From a virus (Duplodnaviria; Caudoviricetes): 54,403 bases of DNA. A program made the translations under genes and the position numbers. Positions 3,043-24,200 of the stretch are shown one piece after another (position 1 is the stretch's first letter; every line of letters begins with the position of its first letter). The DNA lies in the IMG/VR virus record IMGVR_UViG_3300013122_000005, positions 1-54,403 of that record. One strand, written 5' to 3'. Under the pieces are notes generated by a model that saw nothing but the letters and a program-made list of their open reading frames with translations, was not told the origin of the DNA and made no database searches.

Positions 3043-4170
3043 TTAATTACAATTTGAACATGGTGAATCAATACTACCTTCTGTTGAAACAGGGTTACAT
3101 ATACCACATGACTGTGATATTTCTTTTGCCTTTGTTATCATATCTGATACTCTATGAACATAACTATCCTGTAAATCATCCGTTCCAAATATTCCTAAAT
3201 AATATACTTGTTCTACATTAATATATGCCATAATAGACATTACAAATCCTGACATCATATTAAGTGTTTCTCTATATCTTTTTTGTGTTTCTATAAGTGC
3301 AGGATCACATGTATTACAACATGGATTATATGCTCCACACATCACATCCTGGAATAATCGTTGATAACATGCCCATAAAGAGCACCATTCATATATCCTA
3401 AATGTTCCTACATTTATTTCTTCTGTACCGGTATCTGCACTTACTGATATATTATATACACCATCTCCCCATTGTGATATATCTATATCTACTGTTGTAC
3501 TTATTGCAGGATCTAAAGTATATGTTGCAAGTACTGTTGAACTACCATAAGCAGTTAAAGTAATAGTCTGAACATATCCTAACCCTGATAAATCTTCCAT
3601 ACGATAATTATAACAACTTATTTTTGTTAAAGTAGGAGTATAATTATTACCACAATTAATATCGAATGTCGTTTGTACATATCCATTCTTACCCATGGCA
3701 ATTAATGGAGAACAAAAATTATAAAACCATGTATATGCTTGTGTTAAATCTGCAGGTGTTCCTATTGTTATAATATCCCATACAGGATCAACACCTGGAA
3801 CAGCATCATGATTTGCTAATCCATTTGAATGCCAAAATTGACCATTATAAGTACAAACCCAATCTACAGGATACCATCCTCCAGGTGCAGGATTAGTCCA
3901 TATACTAACTACAAATACCTGTATAGTTACTGTTTCATTTCCAATAGGTGGTATAGTCCAGGTACATGGAACTCCATAATAATTCATATTACTTAATGAA
4001 GCTCCTGTATATGGTGCTCCTGCAAATGCAGCAATATCATAAAACATAACAACTCCATATTCTGTTATAGGTAATCCATCATAAGGATATGGTGTTATAT
4101 CACTTACTGCAATAGTACATGGTTCCGGCCCATTCTGTGCTGTTATAAAAAAATCAGTTAATAATGCCAT
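3043..4170 (-). CDS. Virion protein, possibly tail hub A-like, with a CBM5/12-like insert and Cys-rich helical C-terminus
   Basis: Beta-rich N-terminus; WYPVDWVCTYNGQFW...PGVDPVW motif; C-terminal CYQRL...CGAYNPCCNTC...CGIC...CSNC. Confidence 0.45.
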   Translation of the reverse strand: MALLTDFFITAQNGPEPCTIAVSDITPYPYDGLPITEYGVVMFYDIAAFAGAPYTGASLSNMNYYGVPCTWTIPPIGNETVTIQVFVVSIWTNPAPGGWYPVDWVCTYNGQFWHSNGLANHDAVPGVDPVWDIITIGTPADLTQAYTWFYNFCSPLIAMGKNGYVQTTFDINCGNNYTPTLTKISCYNYRMEDLSGLGYVQTITLTAYGSSTVLATYTLDPAISTTVDIDISQWGDGVYNISVSADTGTEEINVGTFRIYEWCSLWACYQRLFQDVMCGAYNPCCNTCDPALIETQKRYRETLNMMSGFVMSIMAYINVEQVYYLGIFGTDDLQDSYVHRVSDMITKAKEISQSCGICNPVSTEGSIDSPCSNCN

Positions 4171-4187
4171 AATATTAAAATATTAAA

Positions 4188-7100
4188 TTAATTTTTATTG
4201 GTTTCTTTTATTTCAGGATATATTGGTTCTACAACATCTTTTATTTGGCTTGGTACAAACATCCTTTCATCTATATCTCCTTCTTTAATCTTATTCCACA
4301 TCGAAGAACTAAATACATTTGCTCCCCAACGATCTATAATACTTATTGTAGAAAATGGATTTTTAGCAATCTCTAATAGTTGAGGTAAAACCAATATAGA
4401 ATCTGCTGCATATATCCAATTTCGCACTAATCTATTTTCTGGTATTGGTTTATCATCATCATCAGGATTACGTTTAAGATTTACTAATATATTATAAACA
4501 ATATACATTGCTATCATAGCTGCTACTCGCATACCTAATTTTCTATAATTTGCTCTCTCAAATGGTTCCATCTTACTCCATTGTTTAAGACTTTTAGTTT
4601 TATACATCTCTTGTATATGTCTTAAGAATGTTATATTATATCCTTCTACTATCATTTTTTCTATTCTTGATTGATATGATCCATCCTTTTGTTTAATTAC
4701 TCTTAATTTTCCACCTCTTTTAGTATATCCCTTTGATTGAAATGCATCTTGATATGCCGTAAAGATATAATTTTTCATTTTAGTAAATAGATTTCCTATA
4801 AAAAGATTTCCTAAATTTACTCTATCCGGATTACTATATCCTCCTATAATCATTGTTCCAAAATATTTTAATTTTTGAACTTCATCATAGATATAGGGTA
4901 TATCTATTCCTTTATTATTTTCATCTGAACTACCTTTCTTAATTAATTCATTCCTATATGCATCAAATAATGCTTTTTTATCAGGACTCTTATTCATCCC
5001 AATCCATCTCTTATCTTTAAGCCAATTATATTTAACAGTACCATCTTTAGAATTATATGTAAAGGCATCAAATACTCCATCATGCATCATCTGTGCTACC
5101 ATAATAGAACATTTTGTCCCAAAATCTGTCCAGAAGTTACCAGCTTGTGTTATAGTCTGATCAAACAATTCCTTTCCTGTCTTTTTATATATCTGATATG
5201 TCATTAATTCATATTCATCCATCATTCCTGTTGCACGATACAACTCTATCGCAAATGATTTATGTGCTACTATCCATGATTGTGCTTTTAGATAATCTTT
5301 ATCATTCCATAATTCTTTATCTTCTCTATTTGCAAATCCTTGTGATATTGCCTTTAAAGTATTTATTAATCCTGACTGAATACCTACATTTTGATTAACT
5401 GTTAATACTATATTAGATACTGTATTTGCTAAAGTAATAATAGCCGGAGCAATATTTTTCCCCGCTACTTTTATAGATTGTTTATTAACAATATTACTTA
5501 CTGCTCTCTGCGACCAACTTCTGATAAATTCTATAAGATCATTAGTATTTTCATCTTTATTATCTTTTGCTATCTGTAATTGTGATAATAATGCATTTTG
5601 ATAAGGTAAAACTTCTATATCTAATATCCTTTTACGTTCACTAGACATCCAAAAATACTTCATTAATAATTCAATATTCTGTGATAAATTTTCATTCTTT
5701 TTGGAATCAATTAAAGTATATCCTCCTTTCCCATTATTTGCATATGCATCAAACTTTAATCCTAAATGAAATAATCGAATATTTTCATTCTTATTACATA
5801 ATTGATTATAATATTTAGCAAACAATTCATTTGTCTGTTGATTTTCACTAATAAGATCCTCTGTAAATATAGTATTTATATTTCCTGCCTTATATAAATT
5901 ATTCTTTGCTGCATTAAATACATTCTTAAGTCCACCTTTATTTAGTAATTCTAATGACGTTATATTCATTATTGGAAGCATACCTTCTTCATAATGATAT
6001 TCATTAAATAACATTTCTTTAATTTCATCTTTTGTATATGGATTTTCTGTTTGAGGATTATAATTTCTATTTTCTATTGTTATTTGATGTTCAAGCATAG
6101 TAACCATTTGTTCTGTTATTTGATCTACTATCCATCTACCTTCATCCAATATTTCTTTTGATAATCTTTGTCTTTGATCTTTATAATACTTTTTAGTACC
6201 ATTTTCATCTATATAATATCCTTCATCCCCTGTAAAATGAATACGCGATAATTTAGCTTTATAAACCTTTCCACCATTTTTAATCTCTCTATAACACATC
6301 ATCCGTTCATAATTTTCTTTCTGTCCTAGAGTACTATTTGTGGCCATACCTAACTTTTTCAAATTAGTCCAATGAGGTTCCGCTAACTTCATCTTCTTGT
6401 TAACAGATACTACAGATTTATATAATCCATTACCAGCAATATAGGCATAATCTTGTATTATATCATCATTAATATTAACAATAGAAGTAGCAAATTTCTT
6501 AATGAGATCAAACGAACTTTTTATATTCCATTGAAAAGCTAATGGATTAACTATCATTAAAGCATTTATACTATCTTTTAATATTGATTGAATATATTGT
6601 TCTTCAGTAGATAGATAATTCTTACTTTCTAATCTTTTTAATGCTAAAGAATAAAGCTTCATTAATACATCAGGTGACTCTGATTGATTATCTGCTATGT
6701 TCTTTATCTCAAAGAAAGGATCTGTTCCATCTTTATAATAATCATAATCATTAGCAATAGAATCTATAACTTTATTAAAGTCAATATAAATATTATTAGC
6801 CCATGAATTATTTCCTATATCTTCTGTAAAGTATTTCTTTATAGTATCAGGTAGGTCTGCTGTAAATTCTTCTACCTTAGCCATACCTTTTAAATTCATT
6901 AAAACACTTTTAATATCATGGAATGTACATAATGTTTCTGTAGGCATTATTCCTATAGATGCTATATTTCTAACTTTTATACCTGTCTTATTTATAATAT
7001 CGGCAGCCATCAATCCCATTATTACAGAACTAATATCTCCATGGGTATTATTCATTGACATTCCTAATTGTTTTGCTTTCTTTTCACTATCTATTCCATA

Positions 7101-10100
7101 AACCTTTAATATACTTTCTATCTTCACACTCTCATTAGTATATTTAGGTGATGAATTTCTTATATCATAAAGTGATATAATTGTTTGTGATCTATCTTTT
7201 GATACATTCTCTAACATTACCATTATATCCGAATCATCAAAATAGGTATCTAATGACTTTAATGATGGTATCTTTTCTTTTGCTTCCTTAAGTGTCATTA
7301 ATTGCATCCCCTTATAATAATCAACTGCCTTTAAAAATTTTATTATTGCTGCAGGTTTATATATATTTACTTTTTCTCCATTTACCATATTAGTACCTAA
7401 AGATTCTATACTATCTACTGATCCTTTTTCTATATTAATAAAATTAGCAAAATTACTTTGATGTTCTTCAATTATAGTTTCTTTATTTTTATCTAAAATA
7501 CCATTATCTGATATATAACTTCTTATATAGTTCTCACTTGTATTTTCTATTCTTTCTGACCTTCCAACCCATTTCATAGGTAAATGACCATACATCTTTA
7601 CATAAGTAACAATCATATTTATTTTAACTTCTTTTTCTGCATTATCAAATTTAAAATTATTAACTGTCATTGATAATTTAGATCTTAAAGTTCCAGCTGT
7701 TTTATTTACTGATGCATTCTGTGATAAGACTTTTATCCTATTAATCTTCATTAACCGATTGATCGTAGATGAACTTACTTCAGATACTATCTTTCTATTT
7801 TGTATAGCATTATATAATTGTTCTCCTATATCAAAGACAGATCCTTTAGTAAAATCAATATTTATTTCTGTCCCATATATTCCTTTAAATACACTCTTTA
7901 TAAAATCCCAAAATTTAGTTAATACATTTTTTATACTACCATAGATTCCTTTAGTCCTTTGTTCTACGTTATTTACTTTTATCTTATGTAATCCTAACAT
8001 TACCTTTTCTTCAGAACTCCATCCCATTAATGTAGCTGCTACTTCTTCTAAAAATTCTTCTCCATTCATATTAGGATTAATCTCTCGTATCCTTTCTATT
8101 ATATCTGGATTAGAATCCATAAATTCTTTAGTACTATTTATTATATCTCTATAAAGTTCTATATTTGAATCTTTGATAGCAAGTAAAAATATATGACTTA
8201 TTTCATGTAAAGGAGTATCTTTTTGTACTCGATCCATGTTAATATATATTACTCCTTCTTTTATAAATGCTATCTTACCAGGATACATATTGTCAGGATC
8301 AGAAGTAAAAGTTTCTTTAATCTGTATATTAGGAAATGCAGTACGAATATTATCAATGAATGTATTTAGTGTTTCTTTAGATAGGAACTTCTTCGTATTT
8401 TCAATATTAGAATTTCTTGTAGTAGTATTTTCATCTTTCTTTTTCTGTTCTTCTTTCTGATTATTATTCTTATTTACAAACTCTTTAAATCCTTCTATAT
8501 CTTGTTTACCTAAATCTTGTCTTGTTAAAAAAGCATCTGTAAGTATTTGAGTAAGCTCTTCTTTTTGTAATTTAGATAGAGAATTAAATTTATTCATTAT
8601 CCATTTAACAAAATTATTCCACCAATTATAAGCTTCTCCTTTTTGTTTAACTACTTGTTCTCCAATACTTTGAACTAAAGCTTCTTCACTACCCCACTTT
8701 TTAATGGCTTCTTGTACAATAGGGCTATTTCTATACCATGCTATATAATGATGTGCATATTCATGTGGTAATGTATCTTGTTTTTGATTAACAGCGTCTA
8801 TTAAGACAGATAGTGCTTTAATATTAGCTTGACCTATAATTTTATTAGCTTCATTACGTTGTAATAAAACTTCTGCTAAATCTCTTGCTTGATTAATAGT
8901 TATTTCTCTCCAAGTATTACCATATTCATCAGTAATTAATTTAATATTTTCTTTACCATAGATTTTTTCAAGTATATTTCTAACTCTTATCTCATAAAAC
9001 CCTTCAATAGGTTTAAGTTTTTCTATACCTTGTGATTTAAGTTCTTGTTTCTCTTTTTCAAGTTGCTCTATTCTTCTATTTAAATCTTTTATCTTAGCGG
9101 TATATTCTTTTTTAATATGATTTTTAACAATTAAAGCAAATTCTTCTTTGCTGCCTGATTTCCAATCTTTATCTTTAAGTGTAGATATGTTATATTCTTC
9201 TTTACCTTCTGAAGTGATAGTTAATTTAGCATCATTACCAATACCAGTATAAACAGTGTTAATAGACACAAAATATTTATTTTTACCATTTATGAAGTTT
9301 TCAGTATTTATATCTAAAGAATCTAAAACATCTTGTTGTACTTCTTTATTTATTTTTAATTGATTAATAACTCTATTTTTTGTATTAATTTCATCAGCTA
9401 TAGTCTGATGTCCTTCTACTTTAGCAGCAGTTTCACCACTTGGAAATAATACTTTCTCATATCCTTTTTTAGCACTATCTTGTATAATAGACTTAATAAA
9501 GAATGTTACCCAGTTATTGTCTTTGTTTAGAAGTTGTAGAAATTGATTTCCCTTACTATCAAATTGTTTTTTACCTGTAGTACCCAGTAAGTCATCTAAA
9601 TTATCACCAATTCTCTCATCTTCTCCAGTTAATTTTTTATGTTCTCTACCTTTCTGAAATAAATCAGATTGTATTTCTAGTATTCTGCGAGTTTTAGCTT
9701 CAGGTTTATTTTGTATTCTTTCATTACCTAAAGACATATTATATCTCCAGATAACAGTTTCAATATCCTCTATAAATTTACTTTTGGTTTGCCATTCACC
9801 ATCTTGTTTAAAATATCTTTCTCCACTATAAGTAAATTCATTAGGTAATTCAGATTCACTTTTAATCCAATTACCTTTTAATTCGTCAACAGTTTTATCA
9901 TCTGAACGAAACCAACCTATACCTTTATCAGTAGCAAATTGAGCATGACCTTTAATAGAAGGAGTTATAGCTGGTGTAGCTATTTCATTTTCTGTATAGT
10001 TAGTACCACCTGGTACTGTTAGATTAGAATAGTGTCGAGTTGGTTTAGATTCATTAGTTAATTCATTATATCTCTTTAATGCTTTTTGATATTCATTATA

Positions 10101-12275
10101 TGAAATTCTAGTTTTTCCATCATCTTTTGTATACATTCCAAATGCCTCAGCATATGTATTTCCATCTAGTTCAAAATATGGAATATCAAAATTTTTAATT
10201 CTTTCAATTTTTTCTTTAGCAGTATTAATTTCAACAGCATAACTATAATTAGCTGCAAATGAAGTTAATTTTTCTTCGATAGTATTGCCTTCAGATTCTT
10301 TAAGTAAATCAAGTTGTTGTTTAGAAATACCCAATTCACCTATTTTTTTCCATAAAGTTTCTTGATTAATAGATTTATTAGACTCCCACTGTTTAATCTT
10401 AGCAAGATTATCTAATATCTTTTCGGTAGCTTTTAATCTATAATTAACTTGGTTATTAAATTCTTCTTGATTAAATACATTATCACCTTGTTCCCATACA
10501 GGATTATTAGTAATATTTAATTTAATTTCAGGATATAACTTTTGAAGTTTATCTTGTATTTTTTGTGCAAGTTCTCTATCAAATGATTTACCTTGTACAA
10601 ACTCTTTAAACCCTTGTATATCTTGTTTATTACCTAATATGTGGATTTGTTCTGTCCCAAATACTACATAGGAATCCTCTCTCTTATCTTCATAATTCAC
10701 TTTACGTAGAAGGGAGTTATTAGTACTTGTAGGCATCTCTCTTATATTCTGAAAAATAACTCCATCGGACCCATCTTGTACTGATAAGTCAAAATTAGAT
10801 ATTACAACTGGAGATTCCTTTTCATTTACTTTAATGTCTGGCTTCTTTATATTTAATATAGTGGTATATATAGTTGGGATATCTATATTGGAATGTTTTG
10901 ATATGATATCATCTATTATAGATGAGTCTTGCAGTAAAAGAGCCATAAGGACTGATACTTCCTCCTTTTTAGATAAATATTGGCTTGTAACATAACTCAT
11001 CGAAAGTGCTTCTGAACCAAACCATTCCGTATATTTATCTAAATTTCTAAGGTTACTTAAATCAGAATCAGCTTTCTTTAGTTCCTCCTCTTTGAATCCC
11101 TCAAATCTAAGCACTCCAATCATTATATCTTTAAAAGACCTAATAGATAAGTCATCAGAACTGCCTTTAAGATATTCGTAATATTCGCCATTTTTATCTA
11201 TCGCACTTTTTATATTGGACAAACTATTGATTATACTAATTTCTTTAGATTCAGTATACGCATTTGCCACAGCTTTTTGGTTTGAAAAATAGAAACCACT
11301 TAAAAGTTCTGAATATTGAGTTTTAATATTGCCTTTTGCAAATTTATCAAATCTTTTGTGGCTACCATGATAAACAATATCTTTTACTTTACTATCAGGA
11401 AATATAGTATCGAGATATAAACTATAAAGTTGTTGAGCTTCTTGTTTTTGTTGTGGGGTTATTTGTCGTTTTGAAATAAAATCTTCGGTTAACCCTAATA
11501 CTTCTTGTAACGCAGAATTATCTTTTACAGTTACATAACTACCTAAAAGTTGTTTTACAAATTCAATTATTTTAGAAAATACATTAGTTCTTTCTACCTC
11601 AATTCTAGATAAATATTCTTGAAATCTTTCATCTACAAAAGCTCTTGCTACAAATTCTTCATCTGATGATAAACCATAATAATCATTTTCATTTTGTGGT
11701 CTTTGTCTTAAAACTTCTTTTCTTAAATTACTTATGTTATTTACAAATTCTTTTTCTACTTTTGATAAAGTACCAGGCATTAACCCTTTTGATATTTTAA
11801 AAGGTCTTGATGTTAAAGAATGTATAACTTCTTCTATAATTACTCTTGATTGAGCAGCATTTGTTTCTCCTTTTGATAAAACATCTAATCCTAAGAAATC
11901 ATTTAAACTATCATAAAATCCCATAGAATTTCCTACAGGTCTTTCTATATAGTTTATAGTTCTTTCTGCAAAAGCTGGTATTTCAAGAAGTTTGTTTATT
12001 AAATTTTTAAAATTTTCTCTCATACCACCCTCAAAAGAATTTAATATTTCTTTTGCCGTAGTTTTGGATATAACTTTTGCATTACCAAGATTTTTATTAA
12101 ACCCAGCAGCTTCATATACAGCATTAGTTAATTCAGGATTTTGTTCAAATAATTCTTTTACACCTGGTTTAATTTCATTTGATACACTTGTTATTCCATA
12201 CCCCTTATTAATATAATCTACTAATTCTTGTTTAGTACTAAACTCCTTACCTTTATATTTAAAACTACATTTCAT
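4188..12275 (-). CDS. Giant polyvalent virion cargo protein (2695 aa): three zincin-like domains, ART-PolyVal-like domain, EIQSD domain, C-terminal hydrophobic segment
   Basis: EEVIH (11820-11834)...EEFVA; VYHG...GFYFS...DGVIF...YVVF; GWFR...LEIQSDLFQ; HEYAH (8751-8765)...EEALV; HEISH (8193-8207)...EEVAA; VAAMIAMYIVYNILV near the C-terminus. Confidence 0.8.
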   Translation of the reverse strand: MKCSFKYKGKEFSTKQELVDYINKGYGITSVSNEIKPGVKELFEQNPELTNAVYEAAGFNKNLGNAKVISKTTAKEILNSFEGGMRENFKNLINKLLEIPAFAERTINYIERPVGNSMGFYDSLNDFLGLDVLSKGETNAAQSRVIIEEVIHSLTSRPFKISKGLMPGTLSKVEKEFVNNISNLRKEVLRQRPQNENDYYGLSSDEEFVARAFVDERFQEYLSRIEVERTNVFSKIIEFVKQLLGSYVTVKDNSALQEVLGLTEDFISKRQITPQQKQEAQQLYSLYLDTIFPDSKVKDIVYHGSHKRFDKFAKGNIKTQYSELLSGFYFSNQKAVANAYTESKEISIINSLSNIKSAIDKNGEYYEYLKGSSDDLSIRSFKDIMIGVLRFEGFKEEELKKADSDLSNLRNLDKYTEWFGSEALSMSYVTSQYLSKKEEVSVLMALLLQDSSIIDDIISKHSNIDIPTIYTTILNIKKPDIKVNEKESPVVISNFDLSVQDGSDGVIFQNIREMPTSTNNSLLRKVNYEDKREDSYVVFGTEQIHILGNKQDIQGFKEFVQGKSFDRELAQKIQDKLQKLYPEIKLNITNNPVWEQGDNVFNQEEFNNQVNYRLKATEKILDNLAKIKQWESNKSINQETLWKKIGELGISKQQLDLLKESEGNTIEEKLTSFAANYSYAVEINTAKEKIERIKNFDIPYFELDGNTYAEAFGMYTKDDGKTRISYNEYQKALKRYNELTNESKPTRHYSNLTVPGGTNYTENEIATPAITPSIKGHAQFATDKGIGWFRSDDKTVDELKGNWIKSESELPNEFTYSGERYFKQDGEWQTKSKFIEDIETVIWRYNMSLGNERIQNKPEAKTRRILEIQSDLFQKGREHKKLTGEDERIGDNLDDLLGTTGKKQFDSKGNQFLQLLNKDNNWVTFFIKSIIQDSAKKGYEKVLFPSGETAAKVEGHQTIADEINTKNRVINQLKINKEVQQDVLDSLDINTENFINGKNKYFVSINTVYTGIGNDAKLTITSEGKEEYNISTLKDKDWKSGSKEEFALIVKNHIKKEYTAKIKDLNRRIEQLEKEKQELKSQGIEKLKPIEGFYEIRVRNILEKIYGKENIKLITDEYGNTWREITINQARDLAEVLLQRNEANKIIGQANIKALSVLIDAVNQKQDTLPHEYAHHYIAWYRNSPIVQEAIKKWGSEEALVQSIGEQVVKQKGEAYNWWNNFVKWIMNKFNSLSKLQKEELTQILTDAFLTRQDLGKQDIEGFKEFVNKNNNQKEEQKKKDENTTTRNSNIENTKKFLSKETLNTFIDNIRTAFPNIQIKETFTSDPDNMYPGKIAFIKEGVIYINMDRVQKDTPLHEISHIFLLAIKDSNIELYRDIINSTKEFMDSNPDIIERIREINPNMNGEEFLEEVAATLMGWSSEEKVMLGLHKIKVNNVEQRTKGIYGSIKNVLTKFWDFIKSVFKGIYGTEINIDFTKGSVFDIGEQLYNAIQNRKIVSEVSSSTINRLMKINRIKVLSQNASVNKTAGTLRSKLSMTVNNFKFDNAEKEVKINMIVTYVKMYGHLPMKWVGRSERIENTSENYIRSYISDNGILDKNKETIIEEHQSNFANFINIEKGSVDSIESLGTNMVNGEKVNIYKPAAIIKFLKAVDYYKGMQLMTLKEAKEKIPSLKSLDTYFDDSDIMVMLENVSKDRSQTIISLYDIRNSSPKYTNESVKIESILKVYGIDSEKKAKQLGMSMNNTHGDISSVIMGLMAADIINKTGIKVRNIASIGIMPTETLCTFHDIKSVLMNLKGMAKVEEFTADLPDTIKKYFTEDIGNNSWANNIYIDFNKVIDSIANDYDYYKDGTDPFFEIKNIADNQSESPDVLMKLYSLALKRLESKNYLSTEEQYIQSILKDSINALMIVNPLAFQWNIKSSFDLIKKFATSIVNINDDIIQDYAYIAGNGLYKSVVSVNKKMKLAEPHWTNLKKLGMATNSTLGQKENYERMMCYREIKNGGKVYKAKLSRIHFTGDEGYYIDENGTKKYYKDQRQRLSKEILDEGRWIVDQITEQMVTMLEHQITIENRNYNPQTENPYTKDEIKEMLFNEYHYEEGMLPIMNITSLELLNKGGLKNVFNAAKNNLYKAGNINTIFTEDLISENQQTNELFAKYYNQLCNKNENIRLFHLGLKFDAYANNGKGGYTLIDSKKNENLSQNIELLMKYFWMSSERKRILDIEVLPYQNALLSQLQIAKDNKDENTNDLIEFIRSWSQRAVSNIVNKQSIKVAGKNIAPAIITLANTVSNIVLTVNQNVGIQSGLINTLKAISQGFANREDKELWNDKDYLKAQSWIVAHKSFAIELYRATGMMDEYELMTYQIYKKTGKELFDQTITQAGNFWTDFGTKCSIMVAQMMHDGVFDAFTYNSKDGTVKYNWLKDKRWIGMNKSPDKKALFDAYRNELIKKGSSDENNKGIDIPYIYDEVQKLKYFGTMIIGGYSNPDRVNLGNLFIGNLFTKMKNYIFTAYQDAFQSKGYTKRGGKLRVIKQKDGSYQSRIEKMIVEGYNITFLRHIQEMYKTKSLKQWSKMEPFERANYRKLGMRVAAMIAMYIVYNILVNLKRNPDDDDKPIPENRLVRNWIYAADSILVLPQLLEIAKNPFSTISIIDRWGANVFSSSMWNKIKEGDIDERMFVPSQIKDVVEPIYPEIKETNKN
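8475..8508 (+). repeat. 34-bp direct repeat, copy 1 (encodes KQDIEGFKEFV on the minus strand)
   Basis: tacaaactctttaaatccttctatatcttgttta; 32/34 identical to 10596-10629. Confidence 0.9.
10596..10629 (+). repeat. 34-bp direct repeat, copy 2 (encodes KQDIQGFKEFV on the minus strand)
   Basis: tacaaactctttaaacccttgtatatcttgttta; 32/34 identical to 8475-8508 and in the same reading frame. Confidence 0.9.
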
Positions 12276-12287
12276 ATTATCTATTAT

Positions 12288-15200
12288 TTATGAACACGAT
12301 TCTTCAATTATACCTTCATCTATCATTTCCTGTATATCTTTTTTAGTAACATTATCTTCTATCTTTTTACCATCATTCCTAGAACGACCATTTTTTAAAT
12401 CTTTTGTTACTGTAAATATATATTCTCCATTAGTTGTTACTTTAACTCTAACTCCTGTTGGAAGTTCACATATAGCATTTTCAAATAATCTATAGTTATT
12501 TGATTCATATTCTTGATTTTCTTTATATATTCCATGCCAACCTGATAACATCTTTGTAACCTCATTTAATAAATATGGTTTATTATTTTCATTATCTTCA
12601 CTAAATGATAATCTAACTTTTTCCCCCATAGTTAATTGTTTTGGTGCTGGTGGGTACGAAGATAATAAATTCTCTTTAGAATTATAAATATTAATATCTT
12701 TCCATGAATTTTCATATTCAAAAACAACATTTCCTTTACCATCATAGTAATATGTAAACTTATCGCCTATAAAAGTTGTTACAGTGTTTAATATACCAGG
12801 TATTTTCTTTTCAATCATATTACCAATACCTTCTCTTATAATTATAAGTTTAGCGATATCATTAGTAATTTTCATATTATGATTATCTAAAATAGTACTT
12901 ATACCTTGTAGATAAGGATTATCTATTAATTCATTCATGGTACCATTGCGATATATATTACCAAAGAATAACATCTGATAAATAGAAAATAATTGTCTTT
13001 CTTGTAATGATAATTTATTAAATGCTGCTAACTTTTTTGATTTAATTCCTTCATCAAAATAAATACTGTTTTTATATTGTACATATTGATATAGTGATGA
13101 ATTTATATTTAATCCATTGATAAAATCATTTGTTTGATTATATTTAGTCTTAAGGATACCTACAAATGATGGAAATAACATACATAACATTTGTCTATCA
13201 CTAGATTTTGATAAATCAAATTCTCCTATTTCATTATATTTCTTAAATGATTTCTTGTTTTCAGCTATATCTATATCTCTTAATTGATATTTCATATTAA
13301 CAATTCCAATATTAGATATTGCATCTCCCCACATAATTTTATCAAAGGCAGAACTTACTTTTACAAAATCAGTTTCATTCATCCATTTCTTTTGTCCTAT
13401 CATATTAAGTATAGTTTCATCCTGCATATACTTATAAGCTGTTATACCTTCATTTAATACTTCATGAGTAGTATCTATCAATTCTATATAAGAATTTAAT
13501 AATGGATGATTAGCAACTATCTGGGCACCATCTAATTCTTTTCTTATTTCCGAATCATAAATATCATCAGTAAATAATTCTTTCTGTATAAATTCTTCAC
13601 TTCCTTTATCTTTAATAATATCTTTATTTTCCAAATATGTCTTTATTGACATACCAAGTAATTTCTCTATATTTAATCTTGCCTTATAAAATTCCCACTC
13701 ATTACTTGCTATCTTTTGTTGCATTTGTGATAATGAAGCTATTCTTCTAATAACCTCTCCGGCCATAGACGTTGTTTTCTTTTCTGATAAATTCATTATC
13801 TTTATATCTAATGAAGATATTAATTCATTTATAGCATTTATTCGTTCAGTTTTCTTCTTATCTGATAATGACTTGTATTTCATTATCTTATTTCGTTTTT
13901 CTACAAGGTCATATTTTTCTTTATTTGGATTTTTTAATATCTGATCAAATGCTTGATAGATTGGTATCTTAGATTGATTATTATCAACATCTATTCTTGT
14001 ATTCTTAGAAATATTTTTAGAAGAATTTATTATCTTAATTGCTTTTATAATATCATCATCCTTTAATTCAGTTATTATTTCATTAATATCTTTACCTTTT
14101 AGAATCAATCCTGTTTGATATAAACTTGTTAAAGGAACAATATTAAGTTTACCTATTGCTCCGCCGAGTTTAACTGTATCTGTTGCACCATTAATAATCT
14201 CCATAGAGGCCCCTATTGCTTTAAATATGCTAAAATCATCTTTTAATGCAATATATTTATCTTTTATGAATTTCTTATTTGATAATTGCATAATAGTAGC
14301 ATAACCATTTTCTGCTGTTGCTCCATGACCAATCATCTCTTTTCCTGTATTATTTTCTTCCATTGCAGATAAATCATTAGCAATACTATTTGGTGCTATT
14401 ACACGACTATTATCTATATTCTTAGCATGTTCTACAATATTCGATGTACTTGTCTCTTGTAATAGATATTTTAAATTAAGAGGATCAGTAAAATACTCAT
14501 ACGATAGATTAAATAATCTATTTTGTAATACTCGTTTTTCACTATTTGATACTAATTCTGTTTCTTGATATGTTCTTATCTTTCTAAAATATGTTTGTGA
14601 TGCATCAGCATCATAGTCGTGTCCAGTTAATAATGCTGTTTTAGGAGATACATATTTACCATTTTCCATAGTATTATCAAACGCAACTATTCTTTCTATG
14701 ATAGCAGATGATACTGAACCTGTTGGAATACGTGCAGATATTAAATCTAATGAATCATTTAATGATTGATAATATGCAGCCATAGATAATAATAATTGTT
14801 TTTTATTATCTTCTATTTTCTTTCCTTTTGTTCCCCAACGTAATATAGTTCTTCTTTGTCTTTCATTATCAGGTAACATAGACAATATTTGTTCATATGT
14901 ATATTCCCCAAATTTAGGTTCTATTATTTCATCATATAATCTTTTAGCTGTCCATCTTTTACCTTGTTTAATGGCAAGTTCTCTCTCTCTACCAGATTGA
15001 TATAAATTTTCTCCTTTTACTTCCATTGCATCTACTAAGGTTTGATTATTATCTAATCCAAACTCTTTTAGATATGGAAATTTACATATTACTTCTGATG
15101 GTACTATTACTAATTCATTTATAGGAATAATAAGATTATTATTAATATCTAATAAATCATTTTTGTTTACTATTTCTGTTTGATCATTTATCTCATCATT

Positions 15201-18200
15201 AACAATTCTATATACTGATAATGGTTTTAATTGTCTATTATTTTCAAATCTATCATTTATTACTTCTTTTTGTCCTCTAGCCCTTAAATCTTGTGCTAAA
15301 TATATCTTACCATTATTATCATATACTTTACCTAACATAGGTGTAAGTGTTTGTTCTGTTCCTGCAAGAGTAGGTTTAAGTGCTTTATTTATATCAGATA
15401 ATAAAAATTGTATTGCTAAATTCTTTTTAACTTGTATTGATATATTAGGATTATTCATTTGGTCTACTAATATACCTGTCTGTGTACTATTCCTCGTACT
15501 TTTATACCCTAATCTTTTTATGAAGTCTAATATTTCTTCTTTTGTCTTTAATCTCTGTAATTGATTCTTTTTTATATTAACAAAATCAGTTAATATTTGA
15601 TTCAATTCATTTGCTCTATCTTCATTATTAGTACCTATTGCTATAAGTTTTGTCATCTGAACAAGTAATGTTCTATTTGAATCTTCTACATCATGATTTA
15701 AAACCTTCTGTGTACGGTAATATTTCATCTGAAGTTTGCTACTATATTCAGATATTTGTTCCGGTGTTAATGATAATTCGGCATTATCTAATGTTACTTC
15801 TCCACCATCAGTTGTTCCATATACAACCTGATTCTCTTGTCCCAATTTAATTGCAGAAGAATGAAATATAAATCCTGTCATACCATGTTCTATACCTTGT
15901 TGAATATATTCCTTTGATACATGATCTGCTGTTTCAGATACTGCTTTATCCCAATCCCTACTATTATTATAATTATTTTCAAATATCTTTCCTATTTTTT
16001 CTCCTAACATAGTCTTAAAAATAGTTTTATGTAAATGGAAATTATCAATCTCAAATTTACTTATAGGTTTTATAGATAATTTTATATATCTCAATTCATC
16101 TGTTATTGGATCATAATAAAATATCATTGGTTTCTGAATACCTTTTACTATATTACCATCTATACCTCCATTTTGTCTTCTTAATAGTTCATGTATTATT
16201 GGATTTGCAAAACCTAATCCATTCGTATTTAATTCGGAATCGTATTTCAAACTATATAATGGATGTGAATCTCCAATATCTTTTATATTTAAATATGTTA
16301 CAATAGGACCAGCACCAATCTTAGAATTAGCATTAGAAGCATTTCCTGGTGATGTTAAACCTGCTGCACGTTTTATATAATCTCCAATATTTTTTGATGA
16401 TAATTCATTTCCTCTTGTTAATTGAGAAAGAGTTTCGTTATATAAATGAAAAGAAAGAAACATCATTTTTAAAAAAGGATTACCTATTTGATTTATATTC
16501 TTATATTCTTTATATAAAATTTTTTCATATTCTTTTTTAAATGCTTCTATTTTAGGCATTATCTCTTTCCATACTTCCTTTGCTTCTTTTCCTTCTAATT
16601 CAATCTGATTTTTACCTAATTGATAAAAATTGTTTTGCATTATGCTCATTATCGTAAATAAATCATTTGTAGTACCAATATTATGTATATCATCTAAAGA
16701 AGTTATATTATCATTTAAATCTTGTTCAATATTATATTCTTCTTCAGTTAATATAGTTTTGCTACCTTTTTGCAATTTAGTCCAAGTACCATCTTCATTT
16801 TTGGTAAACTTCACTGATTTATCGTAATGTTTTAGAATTACTTTAAATAGATCATCCTTTACTTTTTGAGAAACTTCTTTATCTAATATTGTTAATTGTT
16901 CAGGGATCTTATATTTAACATCTGATATCATATCTATATAAGCACTATAATCATCATTAAATGCCTTCCACCATAGATCTATTTTCTCATTTACATCTTT
17001 CGTATTATTCCATTGTTCTATAAACTCATTATTATATCTGAATTTTTCCATTTCAGGATTTAAAGCAAATGATAAGGTAGTATGATTACCAAGTATAACT
17101 TTACCATTCTTAATATGATAATCAGAATTTAATCGCAATTTTCTTACTTGTTCCAGAGTAACATTTCCAATATTAGATTGGAGTTCATTTACAGTTTTAT
17201 ATGACTTTCCTAATAGTTTATTCCATCTTGTTAATGATCGTTGTTGTAATAAACTATATAACTTTACATGATCATCTATAATATTTACAATATCATCATT
17301 ATTAAAACTAATAGATTTTAATTGATATCCTTTTCTTGTCCATACCTTTTCAATATTTACAAATGTTCTTTGATTATTCCCCTGGCCTGATGTTGATATT
17401 AAAGCCATATTTTTTACATTTCTATCTGCTTCAACTCCATTAATAACAGGAATACTTTTTAAATATTTCCCACTATTTAACATATAACTTAATGTCGATT
17501 CTGTTGTATATTTTATTAGATCATGTCTTGTTAATGATATATATTTTCTTCCGGTCCATTCATTCTTTAATCCACCAAATATTTGTGATTTACTTATAGT
17601 CATATGCCCATTATAGATTGGACTATTGACTAATTTACCTTCAAATACAAAAGGAGAATTAATTTCTTTCCCATTTTCTATTAATGTATTTAATTGATTT
17701 TGTGACTGTTTAATATATGTTTCAGAACCTAATCCTATAGTATCATTATAATTATTACTTTCATGTACTACTTGTTGAAATTCTCCTTCTACATTTTTTA
17801 ACATAGTAGAAACAGGACCACCTTGTTGATACAAAAATGCTTCTGCAAATGATTCAAAAAAACTATATGCATCTGTTGGTTTAGGTAAATCAAATTGTTC
17901 ATATTCTTCTTGTGATTCTCCAAAATTCTGTGTCGCACTCATAGATTCCATAGAATATCCATAACCGGTATAAACTGTTTCTAACATTTTATATTCTTGA
18001 TATTCTTCTGTACCTATTTCAAATCCATTTAATTGATCCGTTTCTTTATTTATTCCTGTTTTTTCTAATAGAATATTAAGTTTCATAGCCATCATAGTAA
18101 CCCACATATTAATACCAAATGATGCTGTTCCAGGAGTTAATTCAAAAACACTCTTTGTTACTTCTAAGTTTGTTTCTACACCTAAATAATTTACTATTTG

Positions 18201-21200
18201 ATTATAATATGCCATGTATTTTCTCTGAGTAATAAAATTATTTTTACTCATGTTGTCAAATTCATTACCTAAAATAGATATTGGAACATTTACTATTTTA
18301 ATCTTTTCTCCCTTTTCTGTTATAATATATAACCCTGTTTTATCAACTTCATACTTCTTTTTATCTCCAAAGAAATCTCCTTTTCGTATATTCTTTACAA
18401 ACCCTGATTCATCTAAATTAGTTTTAAGCATATTATTTTTAATATTATACTTAATCGTATTTACTTGATTAAATGATTCTATATTATTCTTTATAATTCC
18501 TTTACCTTTTATCTCTCCAGTTACATAATCATTTATAGATGTAGAAGAATAAGCACTTTCTATTGCTGCAAATACTAAATTAGCTGCATTTACTCGTCTT
18601 TCAACCTCTTGTTCTGTTTGTTTATATCGTTCCTCCATCTTATCTCTTGCTTCTGTATTTTCTCCCCAATATGTATTATCATCAAGATTTAAATTCTTTC
18701 GTAATCGTTGTAATATTAAATCTTTCTCCTCTACCATTCGATATAACCCTTGGCCTCTAACATCATAAATACCAGAACTAAGATACATATCTATATTAAA
18801 TCCTACTATAGAACCTTTATTCCCTAATGCTCTTAAAAATGAATTAATATATAATTGATAATCAGTATTATTTATTCCTATATACTTCTTATTATTATCT
18901 ACTATATCATTCATAGTAGATATCATATTCTTAAAAGTTATTTCTTTCCCTTCTGATTTTAATATTTGTGCAGTATCAATTAATATTCTATGTATAGCAG
19001 TTGCACTAGCATATTTTTTGTCAAATTTATTAACCTCAGTACCATCTACATTTGTTAATTTGATAGTACTTAATATTATCTTTAAAGTACTTGATAGACT
19101 TGAAAATAAATTCTTTGTCATTGATTCCTGTCCTATAGTTCCTTCTCCTATCTTTGTAGCTACATATATATTATTTACAAACTTATCAATATCTATCTCT
19201 GGTAACATTTTCTTTAACATGATATAAGCTGTTCTTCTTGTCTTTTGTATATTTTCCCCTTCTTGAAAACTCATCTGATAGAAAGCATATTGAACAAATG
19301 AATACAAGTTTCCAGATTCGATTTTATCTCCTCTTAATGATTTAATAATATGATCCGGTCCATCTTCTATATAAGCTATACATGTTTCAAAATCTTCTTT
19401 AGTCATATCACCTAATTTCTTAGTAATCGTAACAGGATTATTCTTATCATCTAATGATGTTATTGTTACTTCTTTATCAGGTTTATAACTATTTTTTAGA
19501 TTTAATAATGTTCTATTAATACCTGTACTTATCCATGATTCATTTTTTATTGAAGGATTCCGATAATTCATTCTCCAATACAATGTACTATTCTGTAATA
19601 TTTTAGGAATAAGTACTTCATATAATACTTTATTTTGGTTATAACTATTACCAAATACTTGTTGAATATGTAATTGTGCTAATTCATCATTATATTTATC
19701 AATCTTAATCTTATCAAGATTTACTGTTAATTCACTATTATCATAAATAGGATCCATATTTGCATATACTCCTTCTCTTACTGATTTAGCAAATGCAGTT
19801 AATGATGGTGCATATAATCCAAACTTATTAAGTAAATTAGTTGCAAGTTGTCTTATCCATAATATAAATTTTTGCCATAGATTAGTTGGTTTTACTATCT
19901 CTTGTGATTCTAACTTATATGCAGCATATTCTAATGCAGAACGTATATTCCCATCATATGCTTCTCCCATTTCTTTTATAATATCATCCATGACACTATT
20001 AAAAGCTTTTGGACTTAACATATGTTTCATTATCAAATGGACTGCCTCATGTCTTCCCGAAAACTCTTCTACATTATTTGTGTCTCCAAATAGATATATG
20101 ATACCATTAGATAATCTCCCAAATAATTTTGAATTGATACCTTCTCTTTTTACTAGATTATTGAAATTATTATTTCCTAATATGTGAGATAATATATCAG
20201 TATTTTCATCTTCACTAATAAAAGTTACACTTTCACTATTAGTAATTCCTTTATCTAATGCCATATCATCTTCTTCTATTTTTATTTGTTCATTGTGAAC
20301 AGAGTTAGTAGAATTATGTTCTATTTTATTATTAATCCTAAAATAAAAAGAAGGAGTAGATAGGTATTGAGATCGTACTATTGCATTTTTAGTTATAATC
20401 TTTCCATTATTATCAATTAGATTTTTATATAGATGATCAACACCATTTACATAATTCTTTACCTTTGGTAATATCTTTGTAAGTAGATTATCAATCTTTG
20501 CTATTGGATTGGAACCTTTTATTCGAATATTATTTATTTTTAAATCTTTCCCATTTTTACTATTTATAGTTTTTTCTTTTATAATAAATAAATTCTTAAA
20601 TGCTCGATTTTTAAATAAATTTGTGGAGGTATTTGAAATTAATAATCTATACAAATCAGTATTTTCTAGTAATTGCATAGCTCTATTATATTCTATAGAA
20701 CCATCTTTTAATTGTTCTTTTAATTCTTTCAGTTGTTCTTTAAAGTTTATAATATCTTCAGCAAATGATTCACTAGTATATTCATCTGAAAATAATTTTA
20801 CTTGTTCTTGTTTAAATCCTAACTTTTGAATGTTTATAAATATTGCAGGTGCTGTCTGAGTTCTTAATATTACTTCTTCTCCAACTACATGAAAACCATA
20901 TTCATTTAATGAATTTTCAAAAGTTTCAAATGATTGTCTATCTTTTATGTTTGTACTAAATTTAGATCTGCCAGACATCGTCTGTTCAATTCTTACAGTA
21001 TATTGTTGATTATTATTTTTCATATCAAACAACATCATCACTCTACTTATATTTAACTTCTTAAGTTGTTCTCTTGTTGTTGTATTGAAATCAGAAATAA
21101 ACTTATCATCAAAATATTTAATTGTTTCTTTTAATGCATTATCTCTAGTATCCATTTGAAGTATCTCTTCTATCTTACTCTCTGGCATCTTCATTACATT

Positions 21201-24200
21201 ATCACTTCTGAACCCTATTTCAGGCATCGATAATATACCAAGAATATTTGCTTTATTCTCAATTATCATATCTGCAAATTGTTCATCCGTCATTTTACCT
21301 TTTAATGCATTATATAGTTCTCCTGACTTTGTTTTACTATTTACAGAAGATAATATTTCAAGTATATTTTTTTTCGAAACTTCTAATGTAATAGCATAAG
21401 GAAAAGACGATTGTTCCATAACTTCTCCATTCATAGAATAACCATTAAAAGTTCCTGATTTAACTTCTAATTGTATTAATGGATTATTATTTATTCCATC
21501 CAATAATAATTGCATTATTGCAAGATGTTTATTATTTATCGTTTTATTACCATCTTTATCTATATTCCATAATTTGAAATAATTTTTTATTGTTTTATTT
21601 ACAGGTATTAATTTAGATACATTACTTACAGGTATAGACATTCCTATATGCCAATTTTCTTTATCATATACTATTGCTGTTTGTATATGATAATCTACTT
21701 CTTTAACTTTTGAAGTTTCATAATTAGGTTTAAAATTATCTTGAAATTCCTGATAAGATACATATTCAATATTACCATCAGAATCTTGTGTCTCTACAGT
21801 ATTTATAACTTTTCCATTAATTATCTGTTTTGTAAATCCTTTTACACTAATATTATTATTATTCTTTTGGTTCCTATAAATGTTATTTATTTGTATTACC
21901 GGTTCATTTGTTTTATCATCTATCGAGGGATCAACATATCTTATATTATTAAAATATTCTTCTTTGGTAACTTCTTTATAATCATTTTCTTTCTGTAAAT
22001 CCGTTATACTACTATTTGCCTGTATTTTTTGTTCAGGGGATAGTATATATTCATCTCCAAAGTTTATGTCTATATGACCATTAGAAGGAAATGTATGAAT
22101 AGGTATAATCTTAATGTTATTTAACTTAAATCCTTTAGGTAACATGTTCATATAATAACCATACTTCTGTTTATCTGGTTCTGTTAATTCTTTCTTTTCT
22201 GAAAACATTGATGGAAAATCAATTATATCTACTAATATTGTCCCATCCTTTGTTATCCCTACTATTTCTATTCTAGGATTTGCTTGCACCTTGGTCCCAT
22301 CATTTAATTCTCCTGATAAAATAGAATTGCCTACAAATAATTTATTATTTAGATACGGACTTAATTCTTCACTAAATTGATTTAATATTTTATTAAGATA
22401 TATATCTACTTGTAGTTTTTCAATATCATCTATAGTTTTATCTTCAGTATTTATTCCTATAATACCATATGTTTTAATTTTATTATTTGCTATGTTATAT
22501 TCTAATTGTGCTTTATTAAGTTCTCTTATTAAATTTTCAAATATTTTTTTATCAGTATCTGTAAATTTACCTTTTGTTTCGAAATACCTATCTAGAATAC
22601 TTCTTATTAATTGACCTCTTATTTTATTAATAGGTGCCATAGAAGTTTTAGGATATTTTATATTTTCGGTTACATGTTGATAATCTTTTGCTGAAGTATT
22701 TTTTAATTTATTTATATTCTTATTCTTACTTAATTCTTCAGATTCACTAATTGTTAATGGATGATCGTTAATATTTGACTCTATATTAATTTCATCTGGA
22801 TTTTTAGGAGTAACAAATCTTATTTCGTCTATAAGTTCTTCTCTTGCTTTTTGTTTATTAAATAATACTTCATTGGTAACATCCCTATTTACTATTCTTT
22901 TTATAGAATTTTCTAATCCAGCAATCTCTTTTGGACTATTTACCTCTTTTGATACTCCTTCTTCACTTATCATCTCTAAATAAAGTATAGGTCTTGATAT
23001 AGCTGTTAATGCTGTTCTACCATTTGTTACTGCTTCTTTTTGATTTTCTTTAATATCAATATTATTGAATAATTCTATAGCAACATATGCTTTATAACAT
23101 TCTATTCCCGAGATCATATGATCAAGATCATTTTCATCATATTCACAGAATAATACATTATCTTTATAATCTTTTAATTTTCCAGATATTAGTGCTTCTC
23201 TATCCTCTCTTGTTCTTACAATAAGGTATATCCCTTTCCTATCAATAACAGAATCTTTAGATTCCATCTCTGCATAAAAATTATCTATTACTTTATCTAT
23301 TCTTTCATTTGATGTATTTCCACTTACATAACTCATACCTATTTTCCCATAAACAGGATGAATACAATATCTTGTTTCTAAAGGAACTAAAATAGTATTG
23401 ACATTTTCTGTTTTTGTTTGTGCCCTAAATAGACTTACGGTATTATATATTTGTGTTTGTAATGTTCTATATATCTGTGAAGCAGGAATTGTTCTTTCTC
23501 CAATAACTCTAACTGGATGATCTAATATATTTGTTCCTTTACTACTTATCTGTGCATCATCTTCAAGAAAAATATATGAAAAATTATCTTTTTTAATTTT
23601 TTGTAATTCTGTAATTTCATCTATGCTATAAACTGAACTCTCATCCATAATTGCAATATTAACATTATCTAATAATGCTAAATTATCTATTACGTCTTTA
23701 TAAATATGATCAGTTATAAATTTTATTTCTGGATATTTATCTTGTAATATTTTAATTATATTAGTGTATTCTTTTTGTAATTTATTATGTGTACCGGCAA
23801 TCATTACATTTACCGATTTATTCCCCTTTTTTTTATTTATCTCAGCTATAGTTCCTATTGTTGCTCTTAAAATTATAGTTGATTTCCCTGCACCAGCATA
23901 TCCTCTTAATATTATTCCATTTAAAATTCTATATGTCTCATGTAGAAATGGATCAGGATTTTTTTCATCATAATTCATAGGATTCATATGATGACTTACT
24001 AACTGTTGTACTATTATACGTTGTTCATAAGTCATTTTCTCTTCTGTAGTTCCTTCCATTGTCTTTTCATATGATTCCATTCCATTTAGAATATCTACTA
24101 TGGTTGGCGTGCCATTCCTACCCATTCTATTTACATTATTCATCCAGGTAACCATAGAATATATATAAAACTTCTGTTCCGATGTATTTTTGCCACTATT

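Follow-up and report, generated by a model that had tools for sequence, protein, structure and literature searches.

The two direct repeats inside a giant gene of the virus record IMGVR_UViG_3300013122_000005 are two copies of a linker that stands at the end of protein modules, with the consensus (L)GSKQDIEGFKEFV, a length of about 39 nucleotides (nt) and a predicted helical structure. The record, analysed here at its full length of 54,403 bases (the window), is AT-rich, with about 27% G+C, and is rated 62% complete. The gene lies on the minus strand at positions 4188-12275 and encodes P0001, a protein of 2695 amino acids (aa) that we assign to the polyvalent type of virion proteins from its open reading frame (ORF), a match to the ADP-ribosyltransferase (ART) family PF18760 (ART-PolyVal) and the virion genes around it. 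The linker is widespread and has diverse flanks, the similarity of related sequences breaks off sharply at it, its codons are fixed beyond what codon bias gives, and strains exist with swapped segments. We think it fairly probable that the linker is a homology patch for the in-frame exchange of modules in giant polyvalent virion proteins. The phages that carry it form a large uncultivated, AT-rich group, so far represented by metagenome-derived records only.

The repeats occupy 8475-8508 and 10596-10629 of the minus-strand ORF, 2121 nt apart, and are identical at 32 of their 34 nt (94%). A 33-nt core matches the window twice at up to three mismatches, and two matches arose in 0/100 dinucleotide-preserving shuffles, so the in-frame pair noticed in the preliminary description is real. 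Translation bears out the shared peptide given there as well, which reads KQDIQGFKEFV at aa 550-560 (copy 1) and KQDIEGFKEFV at aa 1257-1267 (copy 2). The spacing is a multiple of three because both copies encode one peptide within one ORF. Their DNA differs at two sites, GAA/CAA (E/Q) and GGA/GGG (synonymous), and the longest exact runs common to both are 13 and 15 nt. With its adjoining residues, copy 1 is LGNKQDIQGFKEFV (aa 547-560; 10596-10637, minus strand) and directly follows the C-terminal strand of the ART module; copy 2 is LGKQDIEGFKEFV (aa 1255-1267; 8475-8513, minus strand), directly follows a zincin-like module and lacks the S or N residue usual between G and K. Similarity of the flanks stops immediately beyond LG..KQDIxGFKEFV on either side. 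A six-frame peptide search of the window at up to four substitutions returned these two in-gene copies and no others.

Elsewhere the linker is common. A degenerate DNA scan that covered all synonymous codons of KQDI[EQ]GFKEFV found it at 41 places in IMG/VR, on about 39 contigs and always in frame within ORFs of at least 224 aa, which supports the earlier suggestion of a conserved coding linker; the same scan of bacteria and archaea, with 185,579 species represented by a single genome apiece, gave three places only, all on contigs of metagenome-assembled genomes. Most copies are preceded by ...EPEQIHILG[SNTG], the end of an ART module, and others by ...YATTSKNLHELGS or ...QQAQQLYSQYLEQTG; the upstream sides form one large ART-type cluster. 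The downstream 350 aa, by contrast with these upstream sides, fall into 28 similarity clusters among 42 copies, and the similarity of related loci stops at the linker: module content does change there, as had been proposed. A Pfam scan of 19 downstream segments left 17 without a family; of the other two, one is a second ART-PolyVal domain and one a 2OG-Fe(II) oxygenase. The linker is also separable from the ART domain, since it stands after zincin ends and after QQKQQAQQ-type linkers too. Zincin ends of the form ...LTRQDL(G)(S) (n=67, in P0001-P0151) are followed by this linker in 13 cases, by a QQKQQAQQ-type linker in five and by other sequence in 48. Two neighbouring modules of P0001 each carry the same C-terminal linker, and this is why direct repeats surround the block between them.

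The limits of similarity between related loci are sharp. When sequences are anchored at the motif, identity in 15 pairs is 80-97% across the 150 nt upstream but only at background level (29-41%) across the 150 nt downstream, stopping within a few bases of the linker; the pair L034/L041 has the reverse pattern. A further set, anchored at EPEQIHILG, holds 79 sequences with enough flank after identical duplicates were collapsed, and nine pairs in it reach at least 80% upstream identity. All nine lose similarity between -2 and +37 nt from the linker start; eight have no in-frame similarity over the next 1467 nt, and the ninth continues into a 41%-identical domain. The upstream similarity of these pairs is itself bounded, at 323-725 nt, and in the eight pairs examined the left breakpoint falls at a second conserved stretch, (Q)YSQYLDTIFPDSKVKDIVYH. 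In P0001 this left joint is QITPQQKQEAQQLYSLYLDTIFPDSKVKDIVYHGS (aa 271-305; 11362-11465, minus strand), a DNA island common to 27 loci at 85% identity or more. The left joint is present in 81/86 ART cassettes, and the interior between the joints is variable, at 77-253 aa. A conserved coding motif thus borders variable segments and the similarity of relatives breaks at it, and the ART modules behave as cassettes with a variable interior and two conserved ends.

Codon choice in the linker is also unusual. In the exact-peptide set (the 41 loci and the two window copies), codon usage across the respective ORFs predicts much more variation than the 11 codons have. Ile is encoded by ATA in 43/43 (19.6 expected), Gly by GGA in 35, GGG in 8 and GGT in 0 (20.5 expected for the last), and the second Glu by GAG in 36 copies, where 8.4 were expected. 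The codons of the adjacent L-G-S vary freely. Among 27 copies whose flanks are mutually less than 50% identical, the linker DNA is still 95% shared. Because a demand for the exact peptide favours young copies, the codon test was repeated on a sample anchored at EPEQIHILG, of at least 120 stretches, which gave 118 records, 93 of them distinct after identical ones were collapsed. The peptide in this sample varies as xxD[IVL]xGF[KR]x[FWY][VIAT], with structural positions fixed and polar ones free. At linker position 4, ATA encodes Ile in 76/79 sequences against about 51% expected, and the codon ends in A if the residue is Val or Leu; position 6 is GGR in 78/86, and position 9 ends in G in 48/60, for Glu and Lys alike. 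The Ile of HIL is ATA in 87/93 and the Pro is CCA in 83/93.

For this sample, expected usage was corrected for the codon that comes next, with 435,336 codons from these loci as the reference, and the expectations for the fixed codons are then 39-61%. Codon-pair context accounts for part of the preference for G-ending codons before TTT (GAG 44% and AAG 52%, against 23-24% overall), but not for the fixation of ATA, CCA and GGR. Neighbouring synonymous sites are near equilibrium (ATT 48, ATC 20 and ATA 25; CAT 47 and CAC 46; GGT 51 and GGA 37), and mean variability within the linker at codon positions 1, 2 and 3 is 0.14, 0.05 and 0.18. Association among the variable sites is weak (Cramér's V mostly 0.0-0.3), which argues against a few deep clades as the cause. 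At the left joint, one amino acid can carry differing fixed codons: Ile is ATA in 65/74 at one site and ATT in 76/79 at another, and Ser is TCT in 67/75 at one and AGT in 75/81 at another. Site-specific, near-fixed codons across the linker and left joint (L001-L152) include Pro, as CCA or CCT, and Val, as GTA or GTT; freely varying synonymous sites lie among them, a pattern that is accounted for by neither codon bias nor codon-pair context.

The core of the ART module of P0001 spans aa 296-548 (10632-11390, minus strand). PF18760 matches aa 300-544 with 31.2 bits, equal to its gathering cut-off of 31.2, and the score rises above that cut-off, to 42.7 bits, on the sub-sequence aa 285-605. YHGS is present, and the EPE usual before QIHILG is GTE here; YHGS and EPE are the residues that we take to be catalytic. 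An AlphaFold model of the region, built from a 61-sequence alignment (mean pLDDT 69), finds its best Foldseek matches in the ART domains of PARPs, and these are weak (E 0.14, TM 0.12-0.17). Copy 1 of the linker comes directly after the last strand of the module, where ...VVFGTEQIHILGN runs into KQDIQGFKEFV, and aa 550-561 (model residues 266-277), that is, this linker copy, are predicted to form a helix with a pLDDT of about 70. In four relatives the Pfam alignment to ART-PolyVal ends at EPEQI, profile position 130 of 140, and the linker therefore lies beyond what PF18760 recognises.

Between the linker copies lies a block of aa 561-1254 (8514-10595, minus strand). The repeats had been said to enclose exactly an EIQSD domain plus one HEYAH zincin; both do lie inside, but the block combines three or more parts that are found separately from one another. 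A HMMER search with aa 545-1270 against 1.84 billion representatives gave 1209 matches with E≤1e-3, of which 574 also reach E≤1e-30; the matched proteins are 264-5760 aa in length. The separately occurring parts are query positions 16-255, 313-457 and 510-713 (about aa 560-800, 857-1001 and 1054-1257), and many matched stretches stop at query 711-716, just short of copy 2. The ExQSD domain and the other conserved parts have hundreds of relatives each, at varied positions in proteins of this size range (264-5760 aa). EIQSD itself is at aa 867-871 (9663-9677, minus strand), and ExQSD is conserved in the alignment; the domain has no match in Pfam, PHROGs (0 families) or PDB sequences, and in Atlas its best score was 0.87, with no named lead. 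The zincin-like module covers about aa 1095-1254, with HEYAH at aa 1171-1175 (8751-8765, minus strand) in a P-H-E-Y-A-H-H-Y stretch that is invariant in 20/20 aligned sequences, and ends in ...ILTDAFLTRQDL. It has no Pfam family and no PDB sequence match, and the structure model of this module plus linker is poor (pLDDT 62, pTM 0.27). A second HExxH, HEISH at aa 1357, is downstream of copy 2.

A relative at L044 has the block split into two ORFs (10767-12842 and 13614-25052) just before E(I/Y)QSD. Between the halves, at 12884-13618 on the plus strand, a 245-aa ORF encodes a GIY-YIG domain (51.9 bits against a cut-off of 22.6) and a helix-turn-helix, and from these domains it looks like a free-standing homing endonuclease that split the gene.

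The closest relative, P0002, is encoded on another JGI contig and was the only protein in the protein search, besides P0001, that shares the C-terminal 500 aa. The two agree fully over aa 1-295 and 915-2690 (2071 aa) and at 96% of positions over 549-672, with identity falling to 18% across 296-548 and to about 30% across 683-914. P0002 has a 120-aa ART-type core in place of the 253-aa core of P0001, and the inner block segment at aa 683-914 (9534-10229, minus strand) is replaced between flanks of 96% and 100% identity. The block and the two linker copies are still present in P0002, and the arrangement around the copies follows the order of P0001. Conserved islands bound the replaced segments, with breakpoints located at protein level: the left joint, the linker region, ANYSY.VEINTAK and NQFLQLLNKDNNW. 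Between these near-identical strains the ART core has been exchanged, and so has a segment within the block, but the block has not been exchanged as a whole. That two strains from one set of lake samples differ in this protein only by two replaced internal segments amounts to population-level mosaicism inside one gene.

More distant relatives have related arrangements. P0015 is about 90% identical to P0001 over some 170 aa before copy 2 and unrelated beyond it. The order ART, linker, block, linker is found in P0002 and P0015 too, with the copies 707 aa apart in P0001 and 738 and 634 aa apart in these two. Three IMG/VR loci encode relatives, and L042 and L043 match only aa 564-1269 and aa 568-1260, so that the limits of homology coincide with the repeats. 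The L042 block has no linker on its 5' side and SKQDIKGFKEFV on its 3' side. The L043 block lacks this linker and is flanked by copies of LT(L/S)EQ(S/N)KNIDDLK(F/S)IE; another 235 aa along comes a third one. This other linker of L043, LTxEQxKNI(D/E)DLKxIE, lies at 9953-10012, 11861-11920 and 12566-12625 of one 6385-aa ORF; copies 1 and 2 are identical at 44/60 nt, and the copies flank the block homologue and the next module.

The stretch 7800-11300 of the window is contained in nine lake-water metagenome runs. In X1, possibly the source sample, the gene is spread over five contigs, even in depth (40.4-45.6), whose ends fall at conserved islands. Depth is raised in the bin with copy 2 (174 against 17 in X4, 73 against 41 in X1) and at other islands too, a sign that these short stretches are also present in further genomes of those samples. 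Contigs of X4 and X5 have 0-2 differences at 4000-8504 and 11431-12500, and differ by 4-11% at 9909-10625, where they are P0002-like; neither covers 10816-11099, a gap that we do not use by itself as evidence. Logan contigs fragment exactly at the joints 8479-8508, 9984-10008, 11380-11391 and 12124-12163, with depth spikes there. We read the joints 8508>11362, 10654>11362 and 11464>12097 as other genomes with closer joints (compare L007), and not as deletions in this phage.

These observations fit a simple scheme. Giant polyvalent virion proteins would be chains of effector modules, and in P0001 a putative ART-PolyVal ADP-ribosyltransferase would be followed by the three-part block with its HEYAH zincin-like end, each of these modules terminated by the linker. 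The linker DNA, being near-identical in many co-occurring phages, would provide a homology patch, and the QYSQYLDTIFPDSKVKDIVYH joint at the start of ART modules would be a second. Ordinary homologous recombination between co-infecting relatives could then cross over in frame at the patches, and whole modules would be exchanged. We infer that the crossovers arise inside the linker through homology, and that the conflict between phage and host is what the exchange serves.

Could the repeat have arisen by chance, from codon bias acting on a repeated peptide, by a recent duplication within the gene or as an artefact of assembly? We find this scarcely credible. DNA of 27% G+C with a strong bias to A/T-ending codons will yield like DNA from like peptides, and Logan contigs do end at the repeat, but two matches never arose in the 100 shuffles, and the codons depart from the bias (GAG 36 against 8.4 expected, GGT 0 against 20.5). 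The flanks of the two copies are unrelated, so they are not a duplication. An assembly chimera, which the preliminary description had raised as a way for its reading to fall, is contradicted by contigs: those of X1, at even depth (40-46), cover the gene and one spans copy 1 (9984-11391), a contig of X3 bridges copy 2 (8133-8891) with zero differences, and the independent JGI contig of P0002 encodes the same arrangement in the same order. With the shuffle, codon, flank and contig tests against it, this explanation already fails. That the block is an active cassette, deleted, duplicated or exchanged between its flanking repeats in this phage, seems very unlikely to us. The geometry permits in-frame deletion, the matches of L042 and L043 (aa 564-1269 and 568-1260 only) mean that the block exists as a unit elsewhere, and P0002 and P0015 also have it between linkers behind an ART module. 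Against this, P0001 and P0002 alone share the C-terminal 500 aa and the block is in both; the exact matches between the copies are of 13 and 15 nt only; L042 has no 5' linker and L043 a different linker on both sides; the copy spacing differs among relatives (707, 738 and 634 aa); and the 62%-complete record has no site-specific recombinase. PF00589, PF00239 and PF00078 (tyrosine and serine recombinases, reverse transcriptase) gave 0 matches in it; in a control set of 14 genomes the three profiles were positive in 14, 12 and 3, respectively. Among the 15 joints listed, of 26 from four lake runs, none links 8475-8508 to 10596-10629, although contigs cannot reveal rare variants, and a six-frame search of the 54-kb window found no orphan or silent cassettes with the motif. 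The claim that the two copies bound a cassette which recombines out or duplicates is therefore not supported: the only close relative keeps the block and both copies, and no such joint is listed. Nor do the repeats resemble the termini of a dedicated mobile element, and none of these data show the block moving, by deletion, duplication or excision, in this phage.

A more serious competitor places the function of the linker mainly at the level of the protein, as an amphipathic helix that caps modules or as a processing or docking site, with breakpoints at it simply because these are viable domain borders and with conservation of the DNA as a by-product. As the main account we judge this unlikely. 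D3, a hydrophobic residue at 4, G6, F7, K/R8 and an aromatic residue at 10 are kept while positions 1, 2, 5 and 9 vary, and the linker is predicted to be helical. Polyprotein chains of this kind could be cut or otherwise handled, for example by the embedded HExxH peptidases; copy 2 is right behind a zincin-like domain in which HEYAH is invariant in 20/20 sequences, and the three LTxEQxKNIxDLKxIE copies of L043 at module borders are what lineage-specific processing sites would look like. The main text on polyvalent proteins proposes metallopeptidase autoproteolysis for some of them, such as DdrB of P1, but also has the N4 virion RNA polymerase packaged unprocessed (PMC5512222). Moreover, processing or capping leaves the codon fixation unexplained (ATA in 76/79 against about 51%; position 9 ending in G whichever amino acid it encodes), and 48/67 zincin ends are followed by neither this linker nor a QQKQQAQQ-type one. 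Homology patch and protein-level role may both hold. A bolder version of the former, which we entertain as a possibility well short of probable, is that there is a small set of portable in-frame joints whose DNA is itself selected for the combinatorial exchange of cassettes among co-infecting phages; the joints would be the 39-nt GSKQDIEGFKEFV, the QYSQYLDTIFPDSKVKDIVYH of about 60 nt and lineage-specific ones of the LTxEQxKNIxDLKxIE type, and the same peptide might also be the cut site of the embedded peptidases. Several points weigh against a homology patch. The domain ends may be the only viable crossover points, and in that case breakpoints are no proof of homology-driven exchange. The difference between P0001 and P0002 would also follow if aa 296-914 had been replaced at one stroke, by crossing over at the left joint and at NQFLQLLNKDNNW, so that from the alignment there may have been one event or several and the linker was perhaps not involved; aa 549-672, between the two divergent segments, are 96% and not fully identical. 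The strict motif is in only 27/150 proteins that hold parts of the block, and is thus not obligatory. The linker peptide is, judging by its substitutions, also under protein-level constraint, and fixed and free synonymous sites are interleaved, which a pure requirement for homology does not predict. The exact-peptide codon test is biased, as it enriches recent copies; fixation is still seen in the EPEQIHILG-anchored sample, but those sequences are phylogenetically related and the statistics ignore kinship, so the codon result is provisional. All comparative sequences are metagenome assemblies.

The surroundings of P0001 are those of a virion protein gene. Nearly all long ORFs of the window are on the minus strand, and the genes for the large terminase, the portal, the major head protein and a virion structural protein are on the same strand as P0001. 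Two giant ORFs, of 5301 and 2695 aa, stand next to the virion genes. P0001 combines several distinct domains in one polypeptide, as polyvalent proteins do. That it is packaged and delivered with the DNA fits this gene context, and the words injected and aimed at host defences in the preliminary description would follow likewise from the ART-PolyVal family and the virion-gene context; we infer both on these grounds. The neighbouring 5301-aa ORF (12288-28193, minus strand) has no Pfam family above cut-off, the best being AAA_30 at 16.8 bits against 27, and the six-frame peptide search of the window found no linker copy in it. At the DNA level no near match to the window was found among 50,697 phage records; MT835645, the single weak tblastn match there, has the zincin-like end and lacks the linker.

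The N-terminus of P0001 (window 12200-12275) is MKCSFKYKGKEF. Close behind it, at aa 35-56 (12108-12173, minus strand), is a conserved island, IKPGVKELFEQNPELTNAVYEA, whose DNA is common to 11 loci; a peptide of the IKPGVKELFEQNPELTNAVYEA type comes shortly after KQDIEGFKEFV in L005, L010, L018 and L036. Many block-bearing ORFs (alignment A2, P0007-P0128; L044 from 13614 onward) start with MAC(K)Y.Y.G... and have Cys among their last one to three residues. Judging from the alignment, such starts and ends look like conserved ORF ends at places where chains of modules are split into separate genes.

In one larger genome, G001 (114,943 bases, 96% complete, classed as linear), three linker copies are on one strand, at 114760, 1534 and 3541. 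They are identical over the linker and the next 39-42 nt (SQPSTQQQGSV), with unrelated upstream sides, and this extended identity suggests exchange or conversion within a genome; the two copies of the window have no such identity beyond the linker. The position of copies at both ends of the record suggests that the giant gene may cross the ends and that the genome is circularly permuted.

A few other roles for the repeat DNA were considered and set aside. The 76-nt folds around both copies are no better than those of shuffles (z 1.03 and 0.03), and window 4000-12500 contains no Rfam families. By eye, TTTAAAG resembles a frameshift site and sits in the wrong frame; an internal start and a Bacteroidetes-type promoter, also considered by eye, were dropped.

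The presumed role of polyvalent virion proteins is to bring sets of anti-host enzymes into the cell, and the fast diversification of their domain order lacks an explanation. A short linker of nearly invariant DNA would supply a concrete mechanism, homologous in-frame exchange of modules, provided that it stands at module borders, marks sharp breakpoints in many independent assemblies and flanks the ART module in which the two lake strains differ. It would then also illustrate clearly, below the level of the gene, the old idea that linkers underlie modular phage evolution. If the joints are portable and selected as DNA, they would make up a population-level diversification system that operates on protein domains. 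As a practical matter, both joints could be used as anchors to amplify or catalogue effector cassettes from metagenomes, and they come with a warning, as they are likely to tangle short-read assemblies and the k-mer graphs of phage communities.

The modular theory of Botstein and Susskind (Botstein 1980) holds that functional modules of phages are exchanged by homologous recombination at short conserved sequences. Its modules are gene-sized and its linkers intergenic, whereas the linker described here is coding, in frame and inside a single ORF. Polymorphic toxins have a junction motif before variable effector modules (VENN in CdiA, PxxxxDPxGL in Rhs), and recombination at the conserved part swaps the module. 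Here the proteins are viral, the modules are internal as well as terminal, and neither orphan cassettes nor immunity genes bear the motif, whose only two copies in the window are inside the gene. Recombination between conserved motifs was reportedly described in T-even tail-fibre and adhesin genes by Tetart, Desplats and Krisch in 1998. The glycine-rich motifs of the adhesin gp38 are treated in the sections on that protein in Trojet et al. 2011 (PMC3157838). As portrayed in those sections, the T-even motifs are like our linker in that short coding motifs part variable segments and are held to mediate in-frame swaps; they differ in that they sit inside one folded domain of host-recognition proteins, whereas the linker stands between whole enzyme modules of a presumed injected effector and recurs in unrelated module contexts across many uncultivated phages.

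The nearest protein-level parallel is with the polyvalent proteins of Iyer et al. 2017 (PMC5512222), the source of the ADP-ribosyltransferase family ART-PolyVal. Like P0001, the polyvalent proteins presented in the main text of that paper are giant and multidomain, are encoded among virion genes, and combine ART-PolyVal and HExxH domains in variable orders. The main text describes no nucleotide-conserved in-frame joint, and the words "linker" and "shuffling" are absent from it, although the supplementary alignments may differ; recombinational variability is considered possible there for one kinase-associated locus only. The linker peptide string did not occur in a literature search over 8.4 million papers and preprints, though supplementary alignments might contain it, and a search on conserved-linker module exchange by homologous recombination with domain shuffling in bacteriophage found no matching paper. 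By analogy with these systems, the linker appears to resemble known motif-mediated modular exchange, as a variant in which the joint lies between putative effector modules.

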